Origin: Kiloniellales bacterium
GTDB taxonomy: Bacteria; Pseudomonadota; Alphaproteobacteria; Kiloniellales; JAKSDN01
Direction: 5' to 3'
Assembly: GCA_041617155.1 (NCBI GenBank)
Contig: JBFJPL010000003.1
Coordinates: 19,189 to 83,188, forward strand
DNA length: 64,000 nt
Shown piece after piece: positions 4,918 to 54,771 of the stretch. The position numbers and the translations under genes were made by a program. The notes below the pieces were generated by a model. It saw only the letters and a program-made list of their open reading frames with translations. It made no database searches and was not told the origin of the DNA. Positions within the stretch are counted from its first letter, which is position 1. The number at the start of each line of letters is the position of its first letter.

Positions 4918-5751
4918 TCAGGCGAAGAGGTTGAGCACCGAGCCCGGTTCGACTTCCCGGGGCAGGAGCGTGCTCTCGGCCAGCGAGTCGGTGAGCGCCT
5001 GGGCGGCTTCGAAGGCGAAGGATATATTGGTCAGGATCTGCGCGGTGCGGTCGCGCAGCGCCTGGATCTCGTCGATCTGCTTCTTGCGCTCGGCGATCTC
5101 GATGTCGTCGATCTTGAGCTTGGCCTGGTCCAGGCTGCGGTCCACGGTTTTGATCAGGTTGACCGACAGCGTGTTGTTGATTTCGATGATCGCGAGCGAT
5201 CCGTCGAGGTCGCTCCTGACGGCGTCGATCGCATCCTGCGCGGCCTGAACGTCCGCCGCCGAGGCGAAGTCGTTGGTGACGATGGCCTCGATCGCCGCCA
5301 GGCCGTCGGCCTTGGTCGCCGCCAGCCCGTCCGGCGCGCCCAAGCGGCCGGGGGTGGCGCTCAGCAGCTTGTCCAGCGACTGCAGCACCTCGGCCCGCTT
5401 GCTGTCGAACTCGGCCACGGTCGTGGGATCGGCTAGCGCGCGCAGCTCATCGAGCTGATTCTGCAGGTCCTTCACGGTCAGCCGGTTGGTCTTGACCGTG
5501 GCGCTATAGGCTTTGACCTCCTCGAGTTCGCGTTCCAGGCGGCTTGCCTTGACCCGCAGCAAGGCGGTCTTGCCCTGCCCGAAGTCGGACTCCTGGAATT
5601 CCGCGATCTTCGCATCGAGGCGGGCCAGCTCGACGTTCTGGGCGATGTTGAACTGCAGCTCGAAGTTCGGGCGCGCCGCCGCCTGCGCCAGCCGCACCAG
5701 GGAGGTGGCGATGCTGTTGACGATGGTGTTATTGGTCGGAAACGTCAGCAT
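4918..5751 (-). CDS. Hypothetical coiled-coil protein in the flagellin/hook-associated-protein operon (unknown function)
   Basis: 277 aa, Ala/Leu/Asp/Glu-rich heptad-like sequence with no TM or signal peptide. Sits between flgL (78 nt upstream) and the flagellin-2 control region. The C-terminus ...EPGSVLNLFA resembles the flagellin ends ...SVLALFR / AVLQLFR. I recognise no family. Confidence 0.7.
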   Translation of the reverse strand: MLTFPTNNTIVNSIATSLVRLAQAAARPNFELQFNIAQNVELARLDAKIAEFQESDFGQGKTALLRVKASRLERELEEVKAYSATVKTNRLTVKDLQNQLDELRALADPTTVAEFDSKRAEVLQSLDKLLSATPGRLGAPDGLAATKADGLAAIEAIVTNDFASAADVQAAQDAIDAVRSDLDGSLAIIEINNTLSVNLIKTVDRSLDQAKLKIDDIEIAERKKQIDEIQALRDRTAQILTNISFAFEAAQALTDSLAESTLLPREVEPGSVLNLFA

Positions 5752-16492: not shown

Positions 16493-17035
16493 ATGTCGGA
16501 TCAAGCGGCGACCGAAGACATTGGCGGCGGCATGGACGCCGAGTCGAAGCCCGACGCGGGCGGGACGAACGGCAAGTCGATTGTGCTTTTCGTCGTGCTG
16601 CCGATCCTTTTGCTGTTCGGCGCGGTGCTCGGCGCCTACTTCATGGGCATGCTCGACCCGCTCCTGGGCGTACCGCCCAAACAGCCGAAGGCCGAGCAGG
16701 CCGCGGCACCCATGCCCGAGGTGAACCAGTCGGCGGTGTTCTACGATCTGCCGGAAATGCTGGTGAACCTCAACGCCGGCGGACGCAAGGCCTCCTACCT
16801 GAAGATTTCGGTCAGCCTGGAGCTGCAAAGCGAGGCCGCCATGGAGCAGGTCAAGCAGGTGCTGCCGCGCGTCATCGACAACTTCCAGGTCTATCTGCGC
16901 GAGCTGCGGATCGAGGATCTGCGCGGCTCGGCCGGCCTGCAGCGCCTGCGCGAAGAGCTGCTGCTGCGCGTCAACGCCGCGGTCCGGCCGGTCGTGGTCA
17001 AGGACGTGCTGTTCAAGGAAATGCTCGTCCAATAG
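16493..17035 (+). CDS. fliL: Flagellar basal-body-associated protein FliL
   Basis: 180 aa with a single TM. AVFYDLPEMLVNLNAGGRKASYLKISVSLEL...VLFKEMLVQ is typical of FliL. Confidence 0.9.
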   Translation: MSDQAATEDIGGGMDAESKPDAGGTNGKSIVLFVVLPILLLFGAVLGAYFMGMLDPLLGVPPKQPKAEQAAAPMPEVNQSAVFYDLPEMLVNLNAGGRKASYLKISVSLELQSEAAMEQVKQVLPRVIDNFQVYLRELRIEDLRGSAGLQRLREELLLRVNAAVRPVVVKDVLFKEMLVQ

Positions 17036-17078: not shown

Positions 17079-18080
17079 ATGGCTGAACCAGAGGCGGCGA
17101 CGGACAAAGACGCCGGTGGCTCGACCAAGATCCTCAACCAGGCCGAGATCGACAGCCTGCTCGGCGGCCACGACGGCCTGGACGCGCGTTCGGGTATCGC
17201 GGCGATCGTCGATTCGGCGCTCGTCTCCTACGAGCGCCTGCCCATGCTCGAGGTCGTATTCGACCGCCTCGTGCGCATGATGTCGACCTCGCTGCGCAAC
17301 TTCACGTCCGACAACGTCGAGGTCCACCTGGAGTCGATCTCCTCCTCGCGCTTCGGCGACTACCTCGATTCGATTCCTCTGCCCGCCATGCTGACGGTGT
17401 TCAAGGCGGAGGAATGGGACAACTTCGGCCTCATGGCGGTCGACTCCTCGCTGATCTATTCGATTGTCGACGTTCTGTTGGGCGGCCGGCGCGGCTCCGC
17501 CGCCGTACGCATGGAAGGCCGGCCCTACACCACGATCGAGCGCAACCTGGTCGAGCGCATGGTGCACGTCGTCCTGGCCGACCTATCGGCCGCTTTCGAC
17601 CCCTTGTCGCCGGTCACCTTCCGTTTCGAGCGGCTGGAATCCAACCCGCGCTTTGCCACCATTGCTCGGCCGGCCAACGCCACCGTCGTCGCCCAGCTGC
17701 GGGTCGAGATGGAGGATCGTGGCGGCCGCTTCGAGCTGATGCTGCCCTACGCCACCCTGGAGCCGGTCCGCGAGCTCTTGCTGCAGATGTTCATCGGCGA
17801 GAAGTTCGGCCATGACTCCATTTGGGAAAGCCATCTGACCACCGAGCTGTGGCAGACCGAGCTGCCGATCCAGGCGGTGCTCGACGAAGTCGAGGTGCAC
17901 TTGGGCGAAGTCATCGGCTGGACCGAAGGCAGCCGCCTCGAACTCAACTGCGGCCCGAATTCGAAGGTCGAGCTGCGGTGCGGCGACATCGCCATGTTCG
18001 AGGGCCAAATGGGACGAAAGGGATCGAACATCGCAGTGCGGGTCGCCGGCAAGCTGACCGGCAACGGGGAGTCCACCTGA
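17079..18080 (+). CDS. fliM: Flagellar motor switch protein FliM
   Basis: 333 aa. It has the N-terminal CheY-P-binding-type motif ILNQAEIDSLLG and central FliM core similarity (LEVVFDRLVRMMSTSLRNF...). Confidence 0.9.
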   Translation: MAEPEAATDKDAGGSTKILNQAEIDSLLGGHDGLDARSGIAAIVDSALVSYERLPMLEVVFDRLVRMMSTSLRNFTSDNVEVHLESISSSRFGDYLDSIPLPAMLTVFKAEEWDNFGLMAVDSSLIYSIVDVLLGGRRGSAAVRMEGRPYTTIERNLVERMVHVVLADLSAAFDPLSPVTFRFERLESNPRFATIARPANATVVAQLRVEMEDRGGRFELMLPYATLEPVRELLLQMFIGEKFGHDSIWESHLTTELWQTELPIQAVLDEVEVHLGEVIGWTEGSRLELNCGPNSKVELRCGDIAMFEGQMGRKGSNIAVRVAGKLTGNGEST

Positions 18081-18592
18081 TGGATCTGTTGCCGTTCGAA
18101 CACTGGAGCCTATTGGCCGACGCGGTTCTCGCGGTCCTCCTGGTCGCGACCATCGCCTATGCCGCGATACTCGAGCGCAAGCTCTCGGGCCTGCGCGCCG
18201 CGAAGCAGGAAATGGCGGAGCTGGTCGGCCGCTTCACCGAGGCGACCAAGCGCGCGGAGAACGGCTTGGCCGAGATCAGGCAGACCGCGGAGGAAACCGG
18301 CCGAACCCTGCAGCAGGCCCTGGAGAAGGGCAACAGCTTGGCCGACGACCTGGTTTTTCTGGTTGAACGCGGCGATGCCGTTGCCGGCCGGCTCGAGCGG
18401 GGCGCCGCAAAGGGCCGTGGCCGAGCGACCGCCGAGCCACCGCCGGCCGGCCCACGGTCGGTCGCCAAAGGCCCCGGGGGAACCGCTGCAAAGGCGCCCG
18501 CTCCGGCGGCCGCCGAGGACGACGCCACATCGAGCCGCAAGCGCACGCCGGAGCAGTCCGCTCTGATGGCGGCCCTGCGGGCCATGCGCTAG
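18080..18592 (+). CDS. Hypothetical membrane-anchored coiled-coil protein with an Ala/Pro-rich tail (flagellar cluster, unknown function)
   Basis: 170 aa from ATG 18080, which overlaps the fliM stop (TGATG). It has an N-terminal TM (WSLLADAVLAVLLVATIAYAAIL), then a helical segment and a low-complexity tail. The 86 codons upstream of it in track ORF 17822..18592 overlap fliM out of frame. Confidence 0.7.
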   Translation: MDLLPFEHWSLLADAVLAVLLVATIAYAAILERKLSGLRAAKQEMAELVGRFTEATKRAENGLAEIRQTAEETGRTLQQALEKGNSLADDLVFLVERGDAVAGRLERGAAKGRGRATAEPPPAGPRSVAKGPGGTAAKAPAPAAAEDDATSSRKRTPEQSALMAALRAMR

Positions 18593-18610: not shown

Positions 18611-19252
18611 ATGAAGCTACGCCTTCTGCCTTTGCTGATCTTTGCGGCCGGCACCGGAGTCCTGTTCCACCTGGGCGATTTGTGGCGGGGCTTCGGCCCC
18701 TTGGCCCAGGTCGCGGCGGCGGAGGGCGAAGCGAAGCCCGCCAAGGCGGCGAAAGCCGGCGCTCGCTACGAGCCAGCCGGGCCGAAAACGGCCGGCGAGA
18801 TGTCGCCTCGGACCGCCACCTTGGCCAGCGACCCCTTCAATCTGACCGATGAAGAGATCGACCTGCTGCAGAAACTGGCCGAGCGCCGGTCAGAACTCGA
18901 GAGCCGTGCGGCGGAGTTGGAACAGCGCCGTACTCTCTTGGAAGCGGCCGAGCGCCGCATCGACGAGAAGATCGGCGAGCTGGAGGCGATCCGGAAAAAC
19001 ATCGAGGGCCTGCTGGTGCGCCACGACGAGCAGGAAGAGGCGCAACTCAACAGCCTGGTCAAGATCTACGAGAGCATGAAACCCAAGGATGCCGCGCGGA
19101 TTTTCGAAGAGCTCGACATGGTGGTGCTGCTCGATGTGATCGAGCGCATGAAGGAACGCAAGACCGCGCCGATCCTGGCCAAGATGAACCCGCGGCGCGC
19201 CAAGGCGATCACCTTGGAGCTGGCTCAGCGCCGCGGCCTGCCGGGCTCCTAG
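18611..19252 (+). CDS. MotE/FlbB-like protein (MgtE-N-like helical domain; putative periplasmic stator chaperone)
   Basis: 213 aa with a signal/TM segment, a coiled coil (EIDLLQKLAERRSELESRAAELEQRRTLLEAAERRIDEKIGELEAIRKNIE), then LVKIYESMKPKDAARIFEELDMVVLLDVIERMKERKTAPILAKMNPRRAKAIT. This pattern matches COG3334/MotE-type proteins. Confidence 0.55.
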   Translation: MKLRLLPLLIFAAGTGVLFHLGDLWRGFGPLAQVAAAEGEAKPAKAAKAGARYEPAGPKTAGEMSPRTATLASDPFNLTDEEIDLLQKLAERRSELESRAAELEQRRTLLEAAERRIDEKIGELEAIRKNIEGLLVRHDEQEEAQLNSLVKIYESMKPKDAARIFEELDMVVLLDVIERMKERKTAPILAKMNPRRAKAITLELAQRRGLPGS

Positions 19253-19257
19253 TCCGG

Positions 19258-19947
19258 ATGGAGCGCGCCGGGCAAACCTCACCGGCCGAGCGTGGCGACC
19301 CGAACATCGTCGCCTTGCTCGGGCTCAAACTGCTGCTTTTGGGGTTTTTCATTCTGTTGAACGCGCTGTCCCACTATGAGGAGGACCGGACTCGACGGGT
19401 TCTGCAAAGCGTCGACCAGGCCTTCAACGGCCGCATCGAAGCCTTGAAAAGCGAGGCTGAACATTCCGCTGCCCTGGGGCCGCTGAACGGAACCGAGGCG
19501 ATGATCGACTCGGTGGGGGCGCTCTTTACTTCGCTGATACCGGCGGTTGAGCGAGAGCTATCGGCCGCCGGCACGCGCCTGCGCCTGGAGCTGCCGGTCG
19601 CTGCCCTGTTCCGACAGGACAGCGTCGCCCTGCAGTCGGGTCGCGGCGTGCTGATGAAACGCTTCGCCGAAGCCTTGACCCAAAACGGCCGCGGCCGACT
19701 CAACTATGAGGTCGAGCTCTTGCACGGCATAAGGCGCGAGGCGATCTCGGACCTGACCGAAGCCGGCGCCGACTCGCTGGAAGTTCGGCGCATCGCCGCC
19801 CTGGTCCTTGCCCTGACCAAACGCGGCGTGCCCGCGGACAAGCTGTCCGTCGGCGTCATCCCCGGCCGGCCCGGCAAGGTCCAGATGGTGGTGCAAACCT
19901 ACCAGCGGGCGGGCCCGGCATTCGACTACGGGGAGCTGGCGCGATGA
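19258..19947 (+). CDS. Degenerate MotB/OmpA-like paralog (single TM, no conserved plug-region Asp)
   Basis: 229 aa. The TM segment IVALLGLKLLLLGFFILLNALS aligns with the MotB-like AWMLTFTDLVALMLTFFVMLFAMS of the next gene but has K where that has D. The C-terminal LRLELPVAALFRQDSVALQSGRGVL...SLEVRRIAALVLALTKRGVPADKLSV parallels the OmpA-like VLIALPGDLLFAPGSTELATTGRQAL...ELSLARALRVAQVLRDSGY. The GHxD motif is replaced by LLHG. Confidence 0.6.
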   Translation: MERAGQTSPAERGDPNIVALLGLKLLLLGFFILLNALSHYEEDRTRRVLQSVDQAFNGRIEALKSEAEHSAALGPLNGTEAMIDSVGALFTSLIPAVERELSAAGTRLRLELPVAALFRQDSVALQSGRGVLMKRFAEALTQNGRGRLNYEVELLHGIRREAISDLTEAGADSLEVRRIAALVLALTKRGVPADKLSVGVIPGRPGKVQMVVQTYQRAGPAFDYGELAR

Positions 19948-20735
19948 CGGAGCCAGGGAGTGTCGAAGCGGACGGCGCCGAACCGGGGGCCGCCAATCGC
20001 GCTTGGTGGCTCGCGCTATCGAACCATGCAGCGGCCGCGCAGCGTGAAGCGCCTTTGGCGCGCGGCTCTGCCTGGATGCTCACCTTTACCGACCTGGTCG
20101 CCCTGATGCTGACCTTCTTCGTCATGCTCTTCGCCATGTCCAAGGTGGAAAAGCGCGAATGGGAGAACCTGACCGACGCTCTGGCGCCGAAGCTGAACGT
20201 CGTGAGCAAGCTGTCCATCGCCCTGCCGACAGAGTCGCGCGATGTCGACGCGGTCGAGACCTTGCCGTCGGTCGATTTGAACTATCTGGCGGCCTTGTTG
20301 AAACAGGACATGGCCGATGATCCCCTGCTCGGCCTGGGCATCCTGCGCCGCTTGGAGCGGCGTGTCCTGATCGCGCTGCCGGGCGATCTGCTCTTTGCGC
20401 CCGGATCGACCGAGCTCGCCACGACCGGGCGGCAAGCCTTGACCGGCTTCGTCGGCCTGCTGCGCCACGTGAACAACCGGATCGAAGTCATGGGCCACGC
20501 CGATCCGCGCCAACCGATTGCCGGCTTTGCCTCCAATTGGGAACTCTCCCTGGCGCGGGCCCTGCGGGTCGCCCAGGTGTTGCGCGATTCCGGGTACCGG
20601 GGCCAGGTGGTCGCACGCGGCTTCGGCCATTCACGCTTCGAGTCGCTTTCGCCGCGGCTCCGGCCGGCGCAGCGCTTGACCTTGGGACGCCGGGTCGAAC
20701 TGGTGATACACGACGACGCCGGAGAAGCACGCTGA
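19944..20735 (+). CDS. motB: MotB-like flagellar stator protein (OmpA-family C-terminal domain)
   Basis: 263 aa. It has the MotB N-terminal signature (WMLTFTDLVALMLTFFVMLFAMS) and an OmpA-like domain (LFAPGSTELATTGRQALTGFVGLLRHVNNRIEVMGHADPRQ...NWELSLARALRVAQVL). ATGA start/stop overlaps occur on both sides. Confidence 0.8.
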   Translation: MTEPGSVEADGAEPGAANRAWWLALSNHAAAAQREAPLARGSAWMLTFTDLVALMLTFFVMLFAMSKVEKREWENLTDALAPKLNVVSKLSIALPTESRDVDAVETLPSVDLNYLAALLKQDMADDPLLGLGILRRLERRVLIALPGDLLFAPGSTELATTGRQALTGFVGLLRHVNNRIEVMGHADPRQPIAGFASNWELSLARALRVAQVLRDSGYRGQVVARGFGHSRFESLSPRLRPAQRLTLGRRVELVIHDDAGEAR

Positions 20736-24865: not shown

Positions 24866-25141
24866 TCAGGGCTGATTCTCTGGCTGCCCGCCGGCCTGGT
24901 TCAGCAGTTCGAGGACGGCGGCGGCCAGGCGGTCGAGCGCGTCGCGCAGATCCCACAGCTTGGGCGCCAGTGCCACGGCCTGCTCCCGCGGCTGGTTTTC
25001 GAGGTTCGTGCAGATATCTCGGACCCGCTGGCCGAAGCCGGACAGCTCCACCAGGCGGCCGGCGCTGATCTCGGCGTGGGCCGCGGCAACCGCCTGGCCG
25101 AGCCGGTCGATCTCCGCCGCGATCGCGGTGGTGGGGGTCAC
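24866..25141 (-). CDS. Hypothetical small helical protein (flagellar export operon)
   Basis: 91 aa. The GTG start overlaps the stop of the upstream FlhB-C-like gene (GTGA). It sits 9 nt upstream of fliO. I recognise no family. Confidence 0.55.
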   Translation of the reverse strand: MTPTTAIAAEIDRLGQAVAAAHAEISAGRLVELSGFGQRVRDICTNLENQPREQAVALAPKLWDLRDALDRLAAAVLELLNQAGGQPENQP

Positions 25142-25479
25142 GGCGCGGCCTCGCCGGCGGCGGCCTGAGAGGCGCGATAGACGTAGGTCAGGATCTCGGC
25201 CACGGCGGCCAAGGCGGGCAGCGGCACTTCGCTGTCGATCTCCACCGCCGCCAGAATCTCCGCCAGATCGGCGTCGGTCCGCACCTTGACGCCCCGGTCG
25301 AAGGCGATCGCGAGTATCTGCTCGGCCAGGCGGCCTTGCCCCTTGGCGACGACGCGCGGCCCCTGGGCGGCGCCGGGGTCCTGCTGCAGGGCGATGGCCA
25401 GCGGACGGGGCCCGCCGGAATCTGGTGTCGAAGAGATCGGCTTGTCGGCCACGGCTGGCACCCGGTCCTCGGCTGTCAT
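25138..25479 (-). CDS. Stand-alone FlhB C-terminal-domain-like protein (EscU/YscU/FlhB-CC family, COG2257-like)
   Basis: 113 aa. PLAIALQQDPGAAQGPRVVAKGQGRLAEQILAIAFDRGVKVRTDADLAEILAAVEIDSEVPLPALAAVAEILTYVYRA aligns with the post-NPTH part of the bona fide FlhB in this window (HFAVALAYELGSAGAPKVTAKGADTLALRMRELAEEYAVPVVENPPLARALYGSVELDQEIPPEHYKAVAEIIGYVMRL). Confidence 0.8.
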   Translation of the reverse strand: MTAEDRVPAVADKPISSTPDSGGPRPLAIALQQDPGAAQGPRVVAKGQGRLAEQILAIAFDRGVKVRTDADLAEILAAVEIDSEVPLPALAAVAEILTYVYRASQAAAGEAAP

Positions 25480-28378: not shown

Positions 28379-29485
28379 ATGGCAGACGAACGTCCCGACG
28401 AGTCGCAAAAGACCGAGGAGCCGACCCAAAAGCGCCTGCTGGAGGCGCAGCAGAAGGGCCAGGTGGCCAAGTCCCAGGAGGTCGGCCACTGGTTCATGAT
28501 CCTGGCCTTCGCGATCATGGTCGGATTCCTGGCGCCCGGTGTCGCCCGGGACATCGCCGATGCGCTTTACGGCTTGGTCGCGCGGCCCCATGCGATCCGG
28601 GTCGACGGCGCCGGCATCCAGGACCTGCTCGGCGAACTGACGGCCAACCTGGGCCTGGCGCTCGCCGTCCTGGTCCTGCTGGCCATGGTCGCCGCTCTGG
28701 CATCGGGCATGCTGCAGACCGGGTTCATCCTGACCACCGAACCGATCAAGCCCAAACTGGAACGGATCTCGCCGGCCAGCGGATTGAATCGGATGTTCTC
28801 CGCGCGCGCCCTGGTCGAGTTCCTGAAAGGCGTTGCAAAGCTTTCGATCGTCGGCTGCGTCATCGCCTTGTTGCTGTGGCCGGAGCGGCGCCTGATCGCC
28901 GACCTGGTGACCATGGACCTGGTCCAGTTCCTGGCGGTGATCCAATCTCTGGCTTTCCGGGTCCTGCTTGCCGTGTTGGCCGTCATGACGGTGATTGCCG
29001 GACTGGATTTCCTGTTCCAGAAGCAGCAGCACGCCAAACAGATGCGCATGTCGAAGCAGGAAGTGAAGGACGAGTTCAAGCAGACCGAAGGCGATCCCAT
29101 GGTCAAGGCTCGGCTGCGGCAGATTCGCATGGAGCGCGCCCGGCAACGTATGATGGCCGCCGTGCCGGAGGCCGATGTGGTGATCGCCAATCCGACCCAC
29201 TTCGCGGTCGCGCTTGCTTACGAACTCGGCTCCGCCGGGGCGCCGAAGGTGACGGCCAAAGGCGCCGATACGCTTGCCCTGCGCATGCGCGAGCTGGCCG
29301 AGGAGTACGCTGTGCCGGTGGTCGAAAACCCGCCCCTGGCGCGCGCGCTCTACGGCTCGGTCGAGCTCGATCAGGAGATCCCGCCCGAACATTATAAGGC
29401 GGTCGCCGAAATCATCGGGTATGTCATGCGCCTAAAGGGTAAGCTACCCCAGCAGCGGGCCGGCTTGCAGCGGGGCCGTGAGTGA
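28379..29485 (+). CDS. flhB: Flagellar export switch protein FlhB
   Basis: 368 aa. It starts ESQKTEEPTQKRLLEAQQKGQVAKSQEV, has 4 TM segments, and carries the autocleavage motif VVIANPTHFAVAL. Confidence 0.95.
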   Translation: MADERPDESQKTEEPTQKRLLEAQQKGQVAKSQEVGHWFMILAFAIMVGFLAPGVARDIADALYGLVARPHAIRVDGAGIQDLLGELTANLGLALAVLVLLAMVAALASGMLQTGFILTTEPIKPKLERISPASGLNRMFSARALVEFLKGVAKLSIVGCVIALLLWPERRLIADLVTMDLVQFLAVIQSLAFRVLLAVLAVMTVIAGLDFLFQKQQHAKQMRMSKQEVKDEFKQTEGDPMVKARLRQIRMERARQRMMAAVPEADVVIANPTHFAVALAYELGSAGAPKVTAKGADTLALRMRELAEEYAVPVVENPPLARALYGSVELDQEIPPEHYKAVAEIIGYVMRLKGKLPQQRAGLQRGRE

Positions 29486-29566: not shown

Positions 29567-32050
<2,484 letters not shown>

Positions 32051-54372: not shown

Positions 54373-54771
54373 ATGAATTTGCTGTCCAACGCGACCCTCT
54401 CCAGCCTGGCGGCGCAAAGCCATAGCCTGGCTGTTTCGGCGAGCAATATCGCGAACGTGCGCAGCCTGGGTCTGCCGCTAGACGGTAGTCAGCCGAGCGG
54501 GGGAGAGTACGTGCCCCAGCGTGCGGTGCAGACCTCCGGGCCGGACGGTATCGTACGCAGCCAGGCGGTACCGATCGAACCACCCTCGGTTCCAGCTTTC
54601 GACCCGAATGACCCCCGGGCCGACGCGAACGGATTGGTGCCGATCGCCAACGTGTCGCTGGAACAGGAATTCGTCGTCCAGATCCAGGCCAAGCTCGCCT
54701 ACAAGGCCAATCTGGCGGCCTTGCAGACCCAAAACGAGATCCTGGGCGAGTTGCTCGACGTGGTGTCCTGA
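54373..54771 (+). CDS. Orphan FlgC-like flagellar rod-family protein
   Basis: 132 aa, colinear with FlgC of this window: SNIANVRS (vs ENVANADS), YVPQRAVQT (vs YRRKVVTF), FDPNDPRADANGLVPIANVSLEQEFVVQIQAKLAYKANL (vs [39 protein letters not shown]). It lies 22 kb away from the flagellar island. Confidence 0.7.
   Translation: MNLLSNATLSSLAAQSHSLAVSASNIANVRSLGLPLDGSQPSGGEYVPQRAVQTSGPDGIVRSQAVPIEPPSVPAFDPNDPRADANGLVPIANVSLEQEFVVQIQAKLAYKANLAALQTQNEILGELLDVVS

Follow-up and report, generated by a model that had tools for sequence, protein, structure and literature searches.

In the 64,000-nucleotide stretch of a Kiloniellales bacterium genome analysed here (the window; GenBank assembly GCA_041617155.1, contig JBFJPL010000003.1), the gene for a canonical MotB-type protein is directly preceded by an open reading frame for a second MotB-like protein, here called X. 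X is a member of the MotB family without the Asp by which that family is defined, and it comes from a large uncharacterised family that is found in a defined flagellar context. To our knowledge, the axle of all solved flagellar stators is a MotB homodimer with an identical Asp in each chain, and the current rotary models rely on alternation between these two Asp. A literature search found no description of an Asp-less MotB paralogue, and such a protein is absent from PMC10954123, PMC13023049 and a 2025 paper on MotAB evolution.

The relationship of X to MotB was examined by comparing a profile of 78 X sequences with a profile of 76 sequences of the neighbouring MotB using hhalign. The two profiles were matched with a probability of 99.1 % in global mode (E = 1.6e-17, 216 columns) and of 98.1 % in local mode (E = 1.2e-13), and the identical register was obtained with two smaller, independently built alignments (93 %, E = 3.5e-7). 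The best PDB matches of the X family profile were MotB chains, with 6ysf (9e-6) aligned from the transmembrane (TM) helix through the plug to the start of the OmpA-like domain; the solved MotB TM segment 9luc was matched at 5.7e-4 and the OmpA-like domain of RmpM (1r1m) at 0.0095. Judging from these alignments, X is a full-length and very divergent homologue of MotB, far above chance. The MotB/OmpA homology that a first-pass annotation had proposed by eye therefore stands under formal alignment at the profile level, but the same check with single sequences fell short. X alone matched Pfam MotB_plug (PF13677) at E = 0.0045 with 17 bits against a cut-off of 24 (X residues 26-56, profile positions 28-58) and scored under the Pfam and NCBIfam thresholds for MotB, BLASTP against the neighbouring MotB aligned the TM segment alone (E = 2e-4), and neither X nor any of 27 family members matched Pfam OmpA (PF00691) at E<=0.01. 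MotB_plug was matched by 22/27 of these members at the same threshold (best 4e-6). Given that there was no Pfam OmpA match, the OmpA-like assignment of X rests on the profile-profile comparison and on the predicted fold.

The fold prediction by AlphaFold2 gave one long helix at residues 15-55, comprising TM and plug, and a C-terminal domain at residues 76-215 with a pLDDT of about 90. The secondary-structure order of this domain parallels that of the neighbouring MotB in the predicted models. In Foldseek the C-terminal domain of X was matched to PA0833, the MotB-C domains of H. pylori and Salmonella, MotS-C, PomB-C, YiaD and OmpA-C (E from 7e-7 to 1e-4, probability 1.0, TM-score on the target 0.5-0.69), and the targets were common to X and the neighbouring MotB, with an identity of 14-19 % for X versus 22-30 % for the neighbour. 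The C-terminal domain of X is thus predicted to have the OmpA-like/MotB-C fold, as the first-pass annotation had supposed, and its description of two adjacent plus-strand reading frames with MotB-like layout (229 and 263 aa, joined by an ATGA overlap) was likewise accurate.

In overall plan X resembles MotB, PomB and MotS, with a short cytoplasmic N-terminus, a single TM helix with an FF(I/V)(L/M)L core, a plug helix, a linker and an OmpA-like C-terminal domain; it is also encoded in a flagellar operon, and the order of elements in the C-terminal domain is equal. Unlike MotB, it lacks the protonatable Asp, the Asp of the peptidoglycan (PG) pocket and the helical segment preceding the last strand, and it is always additional to a canonical MotB. 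A recent tandem duplication of motB was considered as the origin of X and rejected: the X profile scored the neighbouring MotB at 29-39 bits versus 28.5 bits for a clostridial MotB, and with scores this nearly equal such a duplication cannot be claimed. Membership in the Zorya defence protein family ZorB was not indicated either, as X had no PADLOC match and its genomic context is wholly flagellar.

Residue columns were counted in two sets, the 78 genomic copies of X and about 190 representatives collected by searching exhaustively with the family HMM. In BLASTP, in the hhalign runs and in the HMM alignment to solved MotB, the MotB Asp, which is D50 in the neighbouring protein, was aligned with Gly22 of X. 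An invariant protonatable Asp close to the cytoplasmic end of the TM helix (D32 in E. coli) defines the MotB family, and whereas D50 is present in 76/76 of the partner proteins, X has Gly22 at this place. Column 22 contained S49/A23/G6 in the genomic copies and S140/G27/A18/C3/P2 in the representatives, with zero Asp or Glu in either set. Judged from these columns, X is unable to carry the coupling ion at the usual site. That the Asp is lost had been recognised in the first-pass annotation, which however placed a Lys in its position; this residue, Lys24, lies two residues further on, a two-residue mis-registration, in a column that holds Tyr, Lys, Phe or Asn across the family (K32/Y25/F9/N7 in the genomic copies). 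For the exchange of Lys and Asp by mutagenesis that it had suggested, the relevant residue is Gly/Ser22.

In OmpA-like domains an Asp (in GHTD) and an Arg (in LS.RRA) form the pair that binds the diaminopimelate of peptidoglycan. Of this pair X has lost the Asp, since D187 in the GHAD motif of the neighbour is aligned with R160 in a variable column, and has kept the Arg, with R178 being R74/Q4 in the genomic copies and R in 183/190 of the representatives; both the lost GHxD element and the retained LS..R helix had been reported from the first reading. In the family members P0271 and P0272, acidic disordered insertions of roughly 150-250 residues are located in the loop where OmpA domains bind PG. 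Given that the column of the GHAD Asp is variable and that long insertions occur in the same loop, the canonical PG pocket appears not to be maintained in X, and its PG site is, as far as sequence can tell, degenerate. Alignment, family survey and fold prediction thus agree with the structural part of the earlier interpretation, in which X is a MotB paralogue with a degenerate PG site and no means of binding the coupling proton, translationally coupled to an intact MotB. In the X copies of Thalassospira (e.g. locus L065, 5992-6846) the C-terminus is extended by a Pro-rich tail of about 60 residues.

The most conserved part of X is the TM helix, in which L21, L28, F30 and F31 are near-invariant in the set of about 190 members and I32 is present in 175/191 of the exhaustive set. 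The mean pairwise identity among 76 genomes was 0.72 for the TM helix of X and 0.72 for that of MotB, compared with 0.24-0.47 elsewhere in both proteins; the genomic loci were retrieved by the pattern LL[GA]FFILLN, so that the invariance of X residues 27-35 is built into that set. The helix following the TM segment has a conserved face (E41/V48/S51/F56) with low entropy at every third to fourth residue, as in the MotB plug, and with this pattern, the MotB_plug match and the predicted helix it qualifies as a plug-like helix of the MotB type. Constraint at nearly all positions and faces of the TM helix, together with a retained plug, would suggest that this helix is buried in a protein ring and is not a lipid-facing anchor. 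The TM helix of X also contains a polar residue, Asn35 (N146/T22/V10 of about 190; N in 146/191), at a position where MotB has Phe, Tyr or Trp.

Relatives of X are numerous. The HMM search gave 2,244 clusters at 50 % identity with E<=1e-3, 1,075 with E<=1e-10 and 215 with E<=1e-30, and all named members are annotated as 'hypothetical protein'. A species-level collection of genomes contained 179 stretches with a relative of X, and synteny was examined in the best 80 of these 179 loci. The carriers among the 80 loci were Kiloniellales/Kiloniellaceae, Pelagibius, Denitrobaculum, Thalassospira, Niveispirillum-type 'Azospirillum' and other Rhodospirillales-like metagenome-assembled genomes. Complete genomes with X include Thalassospira lucentensis Mv1 (NZ_CP191544.1), T. 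australica (NZ_CP085258.1) and two metagenome-assembled genomes of Pelagibius (NZ_OZ245757.1, NZ_OZ247495.1), and Pelagibius litoralis DSM 21314 is among the carriers that can be cultured. A canonical motB was located directly 3' of X in 80/80 loci, the X/motB junction was an overlap of <=10 nt or a gap of <=6 nt in 79/81 loci and usually took the form of an ATGA overlap, and the order fliL-fliM-DUF6468-motE-(cheY-cheZ)-X-motB-large TPR (tetratricopeptide repeat) protein was maintained wherever the contig was long enough. Two further divergent metagenome lineages have the order cheZ-X-motB-large protein with 4-nt overlaps, and in one divergent lineage unrelated genes separate the X-motB-large-protein unit from fliM-DUF6468-motE while the unit itself is intact. 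These findings show a large family that is under strong purifying selection. In most of the related loci cheY-cheZ or cheZ is placed between motE and X (L065 4910-5980; L084 6283-6996; L086 4652-5287), whereas in the window organism neither gene is found at this junction and motE and X are 5 nt apart. A tblastn search of the PLSDB plasmids with X gave no match, and a search seeded with a divergent Niveispirillum-type member did not yield a tractable model (Azospirillum brasilense, Rhodospirillum, Magnetospirillum).

The protein encoded downstream of X has the features of a conventional MotB. It was matched by Pfam MotB_plug (4.5e-14) and OmpA (3.8e-11) and by solved MotB chains in phmmer (2.9e-15), with an alignment to Clostridium sporogenes MotB that spans TFTD, GHAD, SNWELSLARA and RRVELVI, and its AlphaFold2 model was matched to MotB-C, PomB-C and TssL at about 1e-9 in Foldseek. 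D50 and W44 are invariant in 76/76 orthologues and R205 is present in 75/76. The earlier proposal that X is co-translated with a functional stator is half shown: the ATGA overlap with an intact motB supports it, but no motA was found nearby. The PG-pocket Asp D187 (GHAD) of this canonical partner is kept in only 51/76 orthologues, and the divergent MotB partner in locus L084 has no OmpA match on record.

The window operon is the Rhodospirillales version of the alphaproteobacterial stator-accessory operon, in which X-motB is inserted between motE and a MotK-like gene. The Fla2 operon of Cereibacter sphaeroides has the order fliL2-pflI-motE-motA2-motK, and rotation requires its products MotE and MotK (AMIN domain and TPR), two periplasmic proteins that bind MotB2; in Caulobacter, loss of the MotK-like CC_2058 leads to a Mot- phenotype (PMC10954123). 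In a 2026 review MotE, FlbB and FlgY are grouped as E-ring proteins, with MotC, MotK, PflA and FlcB as their TPR partners (PMC13023049). Like MotE-MotK of C. sphaeroides Fla2, MotE-MotC of S. meliloti and FlgY-PflA-PflB of epsilon-proteobacteria, the window operon combines fliL, a DUF6468 gene in the pflI slot, motE and a gene for a large AMIN/TPR protein. By the gene order fliL-pflI-motE in PMC10954123, and by domain architecture and position, the DUF6468 gene would be the equivalent of PflI, and the 1016-aa protein looks like C. sphaeroides MotK and Caulobacter CC_2058 in architecture and position. Scaffolds of the MotE/MotK type attach to MotB on its periplasmic side and are indispensable for rotation, and a membrane protein derived from MotB but lacking the Asp is absent from all systems described. 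Between motE and motK, C. sphaeroides has motA2 and Caulobacter has no gene (PMC10954123); in the window this slot is occupied by X-motB. PG anchoring in this lineage may rest in part on the AMIN-domain MotK-like protein.

Our tentative interpretation, which we put forward as the leading one although we would stop short of calling it probable, is that X acts as a B-type stator subunit which does not conduct, pairing with MotB in a MotA5:MotB1:X1 complex, and that its periplasmic domain serves the MotE/MotK scaffold. X keeps the parts of MotB that would lie inside and atop the MotA pentamer (TM and plug helix) together with a predicted OmpA-like periplasmic fold, and from overlapping cistrons X and MotB would be made in a fixed proportion. 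With X in one B-subunit position and MotB in the other, the resulting MotA5:MotB1:X1 unit would have one proton-binding Asp and one canonical PG site, and the periplasmic domain of X would provide a docking surface for the MotE/MotK-type scaffold instead of for peptidoglycan. X is accordingly pictured as touching MotA, forming a heterodimer with MotB and binding the scaffold, three contacts that we infer. The first-pass annotation had offered a structural pseudo-stator, a plug or regulator, and a partner for a non-MotA component as alternative roles; a stator-embedded partner of MotB is favoured because TM and plug are conserved and because X is coupled 1:1 to motB. A stronger form, in which the stator of Rhodospirillales-type polar flagella is obligately asymmetric (MotA5:MotB1:X1) and X is a permanently 'neutral' axle chain linking the unit to the MotE/MotK scaffold, is possible but doubtful.

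The nearest conceptual precedent for such a mixed axle is the gliding motor AglR5-AglQ-AglS of Myxococcus, for which a heterodimeric axle of two TolR/MotB-like subunits has been predicted (PMC11761067). As in the case of X and MotB, the genes for two different B-type paralogues lie side by side, and for the Agl pair it has been proposed that a single pentameric A ring houses both. Unlike X, AglQ and AglS both keep the conserved Asp (PMC9389320), are TolR-like and not OmpA-like, and belong to a non-flagellar motor whose heterodimer is itself only predicted.

Several points weigh against a mixed stator. According to the accepted 5:2 rotary model, the two Asp act in turn (review PMC9389320). A stator with one Asp would therefore be without precedent and might not turn. 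Mutants of E. coli MotB at D32 are dominant-negative. The high conservation of the X TM helix in the 78-locus set is partly an artefact of retrieval, although the exhaustive set, which is free of this bias, still shows it. Mutual information between the TM/plug columns of X and MotB (76 pairs) contained clade signal only, e.g. a Thalassospira block Y24/I52/A49. Finally, tblastn with an E. coli MotA query found motA neither in the window nor in any of 83 related loci.

The main rival to the mixed stator is that X is a free-standing scaffold, which would form its own dimers or a ring, anchored in the inner membrane and free of MotA, or inert MotA5X2 'pseudo-stators', and would recruit or position the true MotA5MotB2 units. 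We regard this as somewhat unlikely, while taking it seriously. The partners bound by such a scaffold would be the MotE ring and the AMIN/TPR protein resembling MotK, in functional analogy to MotY/MotX of Vibrio or PflA/PflB of Campylobacter, and the location of the X gene between motE and the MotK-like gene is in keeping with this. So is the loss of the PG-binding Asp together with the acidic insertions tolerated in the loop, which suggest a ligand other than PG, and there is good published documentation of periplasmic stator scaffolds that include OmpA-like and TPR/SLR proteins (PMC10954123, PMC13023049). MotY of the Vibrio/Pseudomonas T-ring, also discussed in PMC10954123, is an accessory flagellar protein with an OmpA-like C-terminal domain that stabilises stators together with the repeat protein MotX; it is however a secreted periplasmic protein that lacks a MotB-type TM and plug and retains PG binding, whereas X has the TM and plug of MotB. 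A mere anchor would need neither MotB-level conservation on all faces of the TM helix nor a plug helix, and the stop/start overlap of X is with motB and not with motE or motK, which points to a 1:1 partnership with MotB.

X might also be a regulator, acting as a brake or reserve plug that competes for MotA, forms closed non-conducting units and thereby limits proton leak or adjusts how many stators are active. TM and plug, which close the channel, are kept while the Asp is lost, and the cheY-cheZ or cheZ genes directly upstream of X in most related loci suggest a link to motor control. Co-translation with MotB in a fixed ratio would however be odd for a regulator, domain scans of X found no sensory or c-di-GMP-binding domain, and a simple competitor would not need the conserved OmpA-like domain, which is predicted to be well folded; we consider this role improbable.

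A charge swap, in which Lys24 replaces the Asp through a salt bridge to a partner Asp or as a site for an anion or hydroxide, draws on the proximity of Lys24 to the Asp-equivalent in the window protein (two residues, about half a helical turn), but it was rejected on the family column counts as very improbable, since position 24 (Y68/K55/F40/N17 in the representatives) has no conserved charge and the Asp-equivalent is Gly, Ser or Ala. That X is a decaying motB duplicate or a mis-called reading frame, as the loss of both hallmark residues and the 'hypothetical protein' label of all named copies could suggest, is hardly credible and is refuted by conservation, namely a GC3 (GC content at third codon positions) of 0.81 like that of the neighbours, more than 1,000 clusters with conserved length and motifs, synteny across Kiloniellales, Thalassospira, Pelagibius and Niveispirillum, and a confident fold prediction.

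Should X prove to be a stator subunit, there would be natural stators with one Asp, on which the alternating-site model could be tested directly, and an obligately asymmetric stator would be a natural experiment on the need for two alternating Asp in 5:2 motors. If X is a scaffold, it would be a new MotB-derived component of the MotE/MotK (E-ring type) stator-recruitment systems of alphaproteobacteria. On either interpretation, more than 1,000 clusters of 'hypothetical protein' could be annotated as flagellar MotB-like accessory protein.

Features of the X-motB operon in the window, with positions counted from the first nucleotide of the window.
Feature	Position	Strand	Evidence or remark
fliL	16493..17035	+	opens operon; Pfam FliL on the identical gene in locus L001; syntenic in related loci
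fliM	17079..18080	+	Pfam FliM and FliMN_C
DUF6468 protein, in the pflI position of other alphaproteobacteria	18080..18592	+	Pfam DUF6468 1.5e-21
MotE/FlbB-type (E-ring type) periplasmic coiled-coil protein	18611..19252	+	Pfam MgtE_N 3.4e-6; NCBIfam collar_FlbB 4.8e-9, under its cut-off
X, Asp-less MotB paralogue, 229 aa	19258..19947	+	
X transmembrane helix IVALLGLKLLLLGFFILLNALS, residues 17-38	19306..19371	+	register from BLASTP, HMM and hhalign alignments
X Gly22 (Asp-equivalent)	19321-19323	+	
X Lys24	19327-19329	+	
X Asn35, conserved	19360-19362	+	
X plug-like amphipathic helix, residues 39-56	19372..19425	+	conserved E41/V48/S51/F56
X predicted OmpA-like/MotB-C-like domain, residues 76-215	19483..19902	+	AlphaFold2, Foldseek, hhalign register
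X R160, opposite the PG-binding Asp of MotB	19735-19737	+	
X R178, retained Arg	19789-19791	+	
ATGA stop/start overlap, X/motB	19944..19947	+	GGGGAG Shine-Dalgarno-like sequence 9-14 nt upstream
Canonical MotB-type protein, 263 aa	19944..20735	+	D50 at 20091-20093, GHAD at 20493-20504, R205 at 20556-20558
MotK-like periplasmic protein, 1016 aa	20735..23785	+	signal peptide, AMIN-like N-domain, then TPR region

The start codon of the MotK-like gene overlaps the motB stop (TGATG); the Pfam matches of its product are weak (AMIN-like 0.038; TPR) and the gene is syntenic in related loci. The operon is flanked by further flagellar genes on the minus strand, flgF, flgG, flgA and flgH, and by fliP and fliO, also on the minus strand, past the MotK-like gene. 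The GC content of the window is 67 %, and X and motB both show the high third-position GC that genuine genes have in it.

Some other reading frames in the window were also recorded. Upstream of fliO/fliP a stand-alone FlhB C-terminal domain protein is encoded at 25138-25479 (-), with a match to Bac_export_2 positions 258-335 (6e-15), and beside it is a 91-aa reading frame without family match at 24866-25141 (-). A 277-aa reading frame at 4918-5751 (-), without a credible Pfam match, is located between the flagellin genes and an FlgL-like gene. A reading frame at 28379-29485 has the size of a full-length flhB, and directly 3' of it, at the edge of the flagellar cluster, a hybrid histidine kinase with PAS, HisKA, HATPase and receiver domains is encoded at 29567-32050 (+). 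About 22 kb from the flagellar cluster, a 132-aa reading frame at 54373-54771 (+) carries a flagellar rod C-terminal motif (Flg_bbr_C, 9e-6).

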